A stretch of 64,000 nt of DNA from an uncultured Verrucomicrobiae bacterium (GTDB taxonomy: Bacteria; Chlamydiota; Chlamydiia; Chlamydiales; Rhabdochlamydiaceae). Every line of letters begins with the position of its first letter. Within the stretch, counting starts at the first letter, position 1. A model generated the notes under the pieces. The model made no database searches and was not told the origin of the DNA. It saw nothing but the letters and a program-made list of their open reading frames with translations. Location: the NCBI GenBank assembly GCA_963731265.1, contig CAVSUE010000001.1, positions 1,440,001-1,504,000 of the forward strand, read 5' to 3'. Positions 56,864-57,847 of this stretch are shown piece by piece. Position numbers and translations under genes: made by a program.

Positions 56864-57847
56864 GTGTTGAGAGAAATCCCTCCATTTCAAGATGCAATTG
56901 CACAGACAGGCGATGTGTCGATTCGGGGTGTGTCGAAAGATTTTAAAAGCCTGTTCGATCAAGGGATTTGCCGCGTCTGGACAAATTTAAAGGATCAAGC
57001 GAATAAAGATATGAAAATTGTTTCGGTTTTCATGAGTAACATTGAAAAGATCAATGGCAGCGAGCCAACCCCAGAAAATTCCTTCCGCTTCTTTGAACAA
57101 TTAAAAAACGGTTTAAAAGACGTGCGAGAGTTTTTAAACCCTGCTGACAGATTACCAACCGATCTCGCTTGCTTCCAATTAGTTGGCCCAAAATACGTAA
57201 AGAATAAGATTCCTGAAGAAATTCAAAAGAAATCAATCAAAATCGATAAGTTAAAGCGCGCTATTGAAAGCTTTCATAATCCTCCTTCTATTCCTGAAAG
57301 ATTCCAATGCCCACTCGTATATGATACCATGAAGATTCCCGCTTTTGATTCTTCCCATCCTTATATTCAGCGTCTATGGGACAAAGTCAAAGACGGCAGT
57401 TGGACTGCTAGTGAAGCTCCCATTGATTGGAGTTTGTTTCATATTATGGATTTGGCTACTATCGAATGCGCTATTAGCGAGAATAATCATTGTCCTACCT
57501 GTCGTCACCCTATTCAAGAAGAAAATCTCCGGATTAATACCGGTTTGCAAAATGAGATTTTGCATTTCTTGGAAAATCAGGTTGCACCGCATTGTAAGGA
57601 AGTTTTCATTCCATGTGATGTGGGCATAGGAAATACTCTTGGCTTTCGTTCTGAACCTCATTGGGGACACACTGTGGTATTCACATGGACTGCTCAAGGC
57701 TGGACAGGATATCTTCCATTGGACTCTCAGTTTAAGTTAGTAAAAACAAAAGATTCGAATGTTGTATGGGAGAAAAGAGAACAGAATCGCTTTATCCCTA
57801 AAGAAGTGAAAGAAGGGCCCCTTCATTTAGATGGCGTTTTCTTTTGA
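56864..57847 (+). CDS. U-box/RING-like E3 ligase domain fused to a C-terminal CBM20-like module
   Basis: PERFQCPL..D.M..P...CPTCRHP...LRINTGLQNEI; then DVGIGNTL.FR...W...W...LP...FKL.....V.WE...NR. Confidence 0.65.
   Translation: MLREIPPFQDAIAQTGDVSIRGVSKDFKSLFDQGICRVWTNLKDQANKDMKIVSVFMSNIEKINGSEPTPENSFRFFEQLKNGLKDVREFLNPADRLPTDLACFQLVGPKYVKNKIPEEIQKKSIKIDKLKRAIESFHNPPSIPERFQCPLVYDTMKIPAFDSSHPYIQRLWDKVKDGSWTASEAPIDWSLFHIMDLATIECAISENNHCPTCRHPIQEENLRINTGLQNEILHFLENQVAPHCKEVFIPCDVGIGNTLGFRSEPHWGHTVVFTWTAQGWTGYLPLDSQFKLVKTKDSNVVWEKREQNRFIPKEVKEGPLHLDGVFF

Follow-up and report, generated by a model that had tools for sequence, protein, structure and literature searches.

The locus and its coding sequence

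The window, as we term the whole 64,000-nucleotide stretch of DNA analysed here, carries a gene for a 327-residue protein in which a conserved N-terminal region is followed by a U-box domain and a C-terminal β-sandwich (Table 1). The gene is flanked by a Fic-family gene upstream and by a convergent FAD oxidoreductase gene downstream, which its last 21 nucleotides overlap. Two genes downstream (58810–59796, minus strand) there is a gene for a Legionella_OMP-family porin with a signal peptide (Pfam E 1.1e-42), after which come genes for citrate synthase and malate/lactate dehydrogenase.

The genome, 2.34 Mb in two contigs, encodes five TLC nucleotide-transporter homologues, an Hc1 histone-like protein and one SctV/FHIPEP export gate, a set consistent with an obligate intracellular bacterium of the environmental, chlamydia-like kind. 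One of the TLC homologues (L034; G000:C1:1261831-1263237) has an internal TAG stop.

Table 1. Features of the U-box/CBM20 gene and its surroundings, in window coordinates
Feature	Position	Strand	Remarks
U-box + CBM20 gene	56864..57847	+	ORF of 327 aa; GTG start, TGA stop
AGAGGA Shine–Dalgarno-like site (56830-56835) and ATG (56842-56844)	56830..56844	+	One base out of frame relative to the ORF; direct sequence reading
N-terminal region, residues 1-110	56864..57193	+	Conserved in three close homologues only; no known family
U-box domain, residues ~141-242	57284..57589	+	Pfam, profile, VIA-align, Foldseek
U-box loop 1 insert, 28 residues (165-192)	57356..57439	+	Starts with family motif FDxSHP
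Divergent CBM20 module, residues 240-327	57581..57844	+	W267, K291, W302 and N308 at STBD1 site-1 positions
Variable segment, 1,073 bp: upstream region of the gene and all of the gene except its last 7 codons	56754..57826		Metagenome contigs, GC

Three close homologues (P0002, P0003 and P0004) align with the ORF from residue 1, with 46–51% identity over the shared part. Homologues at 46–56% identity, the 327 open codons and two independent domain assignments argue that the ORF is not a chance one. The public gene call (P0001; 278 amino acids), which starts at M50, is too short, since residues 1–49 are conserved in the homologues. The ATG at 56842 lies 22 nucleotides 5′ of the GTG and its frame meets a stop after 25 codons. 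In all three homologues, 7–8 residues precede a conserved (L)REIPPFQD motif, a start position which this ATG fits, so that either the 5′ frame problem is real or a weaker GTG/TTG start is used; an in-frame GTG/TTG with GGTGGA ahead of it is a possible start of the latter kind. A 5′ frameshift had been suspected in a preliminary description made from the sequence, on the grounds that the ATG has the better ribosome-binding site; given the fit to the homologue N-termini, that suspicion is reasonable. A promoter and terminator scan returned two promoter-like sites where 3.3 are expected, and hence nothing above chance.

Residues 1–25 are modelled as disordered (pLDDT <50; AlphaFold2 on residues 1–250), with three helices following, and no hydrophobic signal peptide is apparent by eye at the N-terminus. 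Searches of the N-terminal region against Pfam, NCBIfam and the ESM Atlas (residues 1–140) give no usable match, the sole NCBIfam match of the whole protein being a 15-bit rad18 RING fragment. An F-box at the N-terminus looked plausible by eye; the candidate was rejected, as Pfam reported nothing and the family profile, compared by hhalign with an F-box protein (P0120), aligned over the CBM20 part only.

A U-box domain split by an insert in loop 1

Pfam matches residues 193–239 to the U-box family (PF04564; E 2.2e-5, 25 bits versus a cut-off of 21.4), the match covering profile positions 24–71 only; in a six-frame scan of the whole genome the U-box scored 21 bits, slightly below the cut-off. 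The N-terminal half of the domain, IPERFQCPLVYDTMKIP, is a second collinear piece matching plant U-box chains, and a profile of 15 family members (A5) matches positions 3–26 and 28–75 of the rice PUB12 U-box, flanking the insert. The presence of two collinear pieces implies a U-box split by an insert of approximately 28 residues (165–192). The single protein searched against the PDB with phmmer reached E=1 at best.

The AlphaFold2 model has block-mean pLDDT values of 87–96 over residues 111–170 and 191–240 and of 66–75 in the insert, within which it places a helix (residues 166–176). VIA-align superposes the modelled U-box on all 75 residues of the human E4B U-box (Z 8.7, rmsd 1.3 Å), whose RING-like cross-brace fold it shares; the U-boxes of Ufd2, CHIP, LubX and PUB13 also superpose, and the best 50 matches listed are all U-box or RING E3 ligases. 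In Foldseek, the best matches of the model are CHIP, Ufd2, E4A/E4B, LubX and plant PUB U-boxes. The preliminary description had proposed a U-box-like core with an insertion of ~25 residues, quoting the motifs PERFQCPL and CPTCRHP, both of which are in the ORF, the former within IPERFQCPL; the Pfam score and the E4B superposition bear this out, with an insert of about 28 residues, and the Foldseek comparison of the model likewise returned U-boxes. Profiles and model agree on a U-box fold, the kind of adaptor which brings a ubiquitin-charged host E2 to a substrate, with a family-specific insert. Loop 1 of a U-box is part of the usual E2-binding face, and an insert at this place might change the binding of an E2.

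The insert-type U-box family is small, with 34 proteins among the 5.8 billion searched. Conservation of H165, C210 and C213 within it is complete or ≥90%, with H193 and H215 close by; the site-1 cysteine positions are unconserved. This pattern of conservation makes a single zinc site possible in the family, in contrast to the classic U-box, which lacks zinc ligands and whose fold depends on hydrogen bonds and salt bridges. The same residues would also suit an SP-RING-like single-zinc module, in which case the protein would ligate SUMO and not ubiquitin; Foldseek lists Siz1 and PIAS at ranks 19, 40 and 49, and one family member (P0131) has a weak zf-Nse match (20 bits, below the cut-off). However, the window protein itself gives no match to zf-Nse (PF11789) at E ≤ 1, SP-RING proteins are absent from the best 50 VIA-align matches listed, and the stronger zf-Nse match, that of P0141, lies in the second, canonical U-box of that protein and not in its insert-type domain. 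We consider a SUMO ligase scarcely likely, and treat the domain below as a candidate ubiquitin-type U-box.

P0141 (420 amino acids; labelled by NCBI as coming from a Verrucomicrobia MAG) contains an insert-type U-box at residues 180–313 followed by a canonical U-box/zf-Nse domain at residues 337–416, and an SP-RING reading taken from this protein was downgraded because its zf-Nse match falls in the canonical domain. Elsewhere in the window's genome, three paralogous genes lie together at G000:C1:818-821 kb (L002, L003), two of them carrying the insert-type U-box; their products are a 481-residue protein with two insert-type U-boxes, a 375-residue protein and a truncated, 177-residue copy of the N-terminal part. 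Orthologous clusters are present in G092 and G131.

A divergent CBM20 domain with a conserved sugar-binding site

The C-terminal domain is tryptophan-rich (W267, W275, W280, W302) and ends in NVVWEKREQNR. On its own, the segment comprising residues 240–327 has no Pfam CBM_20 match even at E ≤ 10, and the CBM20 assignment hence rests on family profiles and on the structural model. Weak CBM_20 matches below threshold are given by a paralogue in the same genome (L005, 319 amino acids; E 0.019) and by the orthologue P0002 (E 0.13). A profile of three sequences matches the CBM20 domain of STBD1 (8x8k) at E 9.8e-4, whilst a profile of 37 sequences (A4) matches it at E 5e-7 and the starch-binding domain of A. 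niger glucoamylase at 2.2e-3, with weaker matches to cyclodextrin glucanotransferase and β-amylase domains thereafter. Within a set of 66 relatives, 26 match CBM_20 at E ≤ 0.01, four of these above the cut-off; the strong canonical match of several distant members ties the subfamily to the main CBM20 family.

The AlphaFold2 model of the domain (mean pLDDT 93.9) is a CBM20-type, immunoglobulin-like β-sandwich. Foldseek places STBD1 first (8x8k_A; E 1.1e-3, TM 0.66), the matches listed being nearly all CBM20 proteins, and VIA-align superposes the model on the STBD1 CBM20 over 85 of 88 residues with Z 9.9 and an rmsd of 2.5 Å; amongst the best 50 VIA-align matches listed, ranks 1–49 are CBM20-bearing proteins and rank 50 is a CBM25. 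In STBD1, the site-1 contacts with maltotetraose are made by W293, K322, W334 and N339, as described in PMC11406230, the set stacking on α-1,4-glucan and forming hydrogen bonds with it. In the HMM alignment these positions are occupied by W267, K291, W302 and N308, respectively; over the 37 sequences of A4, the lysine and the second tryptophan are invariant, with conservation of ≥90% for the first tryptophan and the asparagine. Fold, sequence relationship and sugar contacts agree, and together they identify a CBM20 subfamily which is divergent but has its canonical site 1 intact. The preliminary description, which had recognised a CBM20 pattern in the tryptophan-rich C-terminus ending V.WE...NR, was therefore correct on this point: the profile match to STBD1, the superposition and the four site-1 residues all agree with it, and the domain does model as the expected β-sandwich in both the Foldseek and VIA-align comparisons.

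Strain variation and the state of the gene

The upstream Fic paralogue (55668-56751, plus strand) reads in three frames compared with an intact 366-residue copy (L040; Pfam Fic 27.6 bits). Seventeen matches to the Fic family occur across the genome; eight copies form a tandem array at C1:1130-1139 kb and four form another at 1524-1528 kb, and LRR-Fic fusions of ~705 amino acids are also among them. A 43-nucleotide direct repeat of 91% identity occurs at 56359-56401 and 56707-56749, the second copy being a fragment of internal Fic-gene sequence; its position immediately ahead of the variable segment gives it the look of a recombination scar.

Two contigs from two metagenome runs, X1 (13,448 nucleotides) and X4 (1,417 nucleotides), have 14 other letters in place of everything between 56753 and 57827 and so lack the gene. 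Run X2, possibly the source sample itself, contains a 150-nucleotide contig with exact identity to a stretch of the gene. Twenty-two sequencing runs were listed, each with a share of ≤0.09 and none listed as RNA, and most of the gene was uncovered in the four runs compared. GC content is 39–41% across the gene segment and 45–50% around it. The X1 and X4 contigs, the GC content, the repeat and the broken Fic gene all point to an accessory gene that varies between strains and lies at a site of rearrangement.

The copy in the window may be decaying. According to this reading, the protein family is the same and the gene is an accessory one which is no longer properly expressed after a disruption of its 5′ frame and which, in a rearranged region rich in paralogues, is being lost. 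The ATG with a good Shine–Dalgarno site one base out of frame, the three-frame Fic paralogue alongside, the Fic-derived duplicate abutting the variable segment and the gene-less X1 and X4 contigs are all in keeping with decay, as is the count of full-length orthologues, 0 of 70, in the other family genomes sampled. Against this, all 327 codons are still open, an in-frame GTG/TTG start preceded by GGTGGA is available, the residues which define the fold and the binding site are intact, and the X2 contig, possibly from the source sample itself, is identical to the gene over its 150 nucleotides. We regard decay as unlikely, albeit not negligibly so.

The CBM20 module as a recurrent C-terminal tag

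Among 1.84 billion representatives searched by profile, 125 have the module at E ≤ 1e-3 and 63 at E ≤ 1e-10; in the 125, it lies nearly always at the extreme C-terminus. Partner domains were sought with Pfam in 123 other representatives (66 at E ≤ 0.01 and 57 at E ≤ 1e-4). F-box or F-box-like domains accompany the module in 16 of the 123, BTB domains in 14 and LRRs in four; USP/UCH, otubain (sub-threshold), WD40 and GlgB-like branching enzyme (P0027) domains were each found in one of the 123. Members in which the tag accompanies BTB, otubain or WD40 derive from metagenome contigs without a taxon, and no ORF combining BTB with CBM20 was found among the 301 phylum genomes sampled (query P0010).

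The module is present in 12 of these 301 genomes, the window's own (G000) counted, and in seven of nine other genomes of the same genus, with at most 14 matches per genome. ORFs of several architectures were checked in genomes of the same genus or family: a USP with two CBM20 copies (G278); F-box–CBM20 proteins in G259 (twice, in tandem), G251, G311 and G278; LRR–CBM20 (G251); NUDIX–CBM20 (G224; L055:441-1472); and α-amylase-family branching enzymes with CBM20 in G131 (L012), G311 (L023) and G321 (L022). Several further tagged ORFs in related genomes have N-terminal parts with no Pfam match. The branching-enzyme-like proteins are of ~1,100 amino acids with the tag at the end, and that in G131 has two CBM20 copies.

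The window's genome encodes four CBM20-like proteins. One, of 570 amino acids (L008:748-2460; G000:C1:~1983.5-1985.3 kb), has a central CBM20-like domain scoring 22.3 bits, just below the Pfam cut-off, and a C-terminal AvrRpt2-like papain-fold peptidase domain (C70; 21.3 bits versus 19). The CBM20-tagged L005:814-1773 (319 amino acids) and L009:1477-2295 (272 amino acids) have N-terminal parts which match no Pfam family.

The fusion of U-box and CBM20 was found only in the window protein and in P0002 (49% identity); P0003 and P0004 stop shortly past the U-box. The search for other instances of the architecture thus had a mixed outcome, giving this one further fusion and, in the 70 other family genomes sampled, no full-length orthologue, the matches there being to one domain or the other. 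A search of genome contigs with the single protein gave 71 pattern matches and no relatives.

In this genus, the CBM20 tag is thus found on many other proteins, of predicted host-manipulating function, a range of partners which suggests that effectors are aimed at host glycogen granules; that a branching enzyme bears the tag argues for α-glucan binding by the subfamily. The tagged branching enzyme would also fit a tag addressing a glucan (or another glycan) of the bacterium or of the vacuole lumen, with the U-box acting solely as a protein–protein interaction module, and chlamydiae do handle glycogen in the inclusion. The U-box, F-box and USP domains sharing the tag, however, have known partners in the eukaryotic cytosol only, and we hold a bacterial or luminal address to be very unlikely relative to one in the host cytosol.

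Relation to known systems

In animals, the CBM20 domain of laforin, which consists of a CBM20 and a dual-specificity phosphatase, brings the RING-NHL E3 ligase malin to glycogen. The protein described here resembles that system in associating a predicted ubiquitin ligase domain with a CBM20 that would bring it to glycogen, and the laforin structure (4rkk) aligns with the CBM20 model at Z 7.6; it differs in combining the two on one chain, in having a U-box in place of RING and NHL, and in lacking a phosphatase, and sequence kinship is limited to the CBM20 fold. The preliminary designation of a malin/laforin mimic is thus apt as regards the presence of U-box and CBM20 on one chain and otherwise holds as an analogy only, there being neither RING and NHL nor a phosphatase domain. 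The glycophagy receptor STBD1 is the best match of the C-terminal domain in both sequence and structure and shares the four site-1 residues; the likeness concerns site 1, the second STBD1 site being formed by H271, Y272, R333 and W355. Unlike the window protein, STBD1 has no ligase domain and links glycogen to ATG8/RB1CC1 through an LIR motif.

Amongst bacterial effectors, Legionella LubX, GobX and RavN and E. coli NleG are known U-box proteins, as listed in the available part of PMC12591485. They share the U-box fold (U-box 2 of LubX aligns with Z 7.5 and an rmsd of 2.0 Å in VIA-align) but have no carbohydrate-binding module reported in that part of the source, whereas the window family has the 28-residue insert and retained Cys/His residues. 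The pairing of an E3 ligase with CBM20 was found in the full-text literature searched for RNF213 only, a host protein (9g08_A) which also appears at Foldseek rank 37; RNF213 differs in being a giant AAA+/RZ-finger ligase, and the role of its CBM20 is left open in the accessible text of PMC11549300. Expansions of F-box, BTB and RING/U-box proteins (NEX1/PEX1) in amoeba-associated chlamydiae were surveyed in 2014 (PMC4209131); in contrast to the tagged proteins here, the ubiquitin-related domains in the accessible portion of that survey are paired with LRR or TPR repeats, with RING/U-box reported in NEX1b alone, together with LRRs, and CBM20 is unmentioned there. No bacterial ubiquitin-system effector with a glucan-binding module was found described in the full-text literature searched, which excludes subscription-only papers; the preliminary description, which knew of no bacterial effector of this architecture, is in accord with this. 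Bacterial U-box effectors are familiar, as are CBM20 modules; their combination, and the family-wide tag, appear to be new.

Proposed function

The predicted domains lead us to favour, as the probable function, that of an E3 ligase which is injected into the host and docks on its glycogen. The protein would be exported into the host cytosol, most likely via type III secretion, where the CBM20 would anchor it on glycogen particles. The U-box would then recruit a host E2 and ubiquitinate particle-resident proteins, for example glycogen-metabolising enzymes, such that host glycogen turnover is altered, or the particles are marked for degradation, to the benefit of the bacterium. That a USP deubiquitinase, F-box proteins and a branching enzyme of related genomes share this CBM20 subfamily lends support to the idea of a glycogen-docking ligase. 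F-box proteins normally have their substrate-recognition domain at the C-terminus; in F-box–CBM20 proteins the tag would accordingly serve host ligases as the end that recognises substrates, which implies that host SCF ligases are meant to target the glucan particle or its residents. Among the indirect arguments for the U-box protein acting likewise, this one is the strongest.

A wider proposal, which is possible although we would put it forward only tentatively, is that the divergent CBM20 serves as a genus-wide address label, sending the U-box ligase, F-box adaptors for SCF, the USP, the AvrRpt2-like protease and the NUDIX protein to host glycogen, with the glycogen particle as a dedicated target organelle of infection. 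In its boldest form, the ligases might attach ubiquitin to the glucan itself, or might tag the particles for glycophagy, in the manner of host HOIL-1, which ubiquitinates unbranched glucosaccharides according to PMC12203941.

If the tag binds host glycogen, the genus would offer E3, DUB and adaptor proteins which nature has already directed to glycogen, as tools for studying the ubiquitination of glycogen particles, a process tied in animals to Lafora disease and polyglucosan storage. For the bacteria themselves, binding of the tag to host glycogen would link chlamydial use of host carbon stores with the abundance of ubiquitin-related domains in amoeba-associated chlamydiae.
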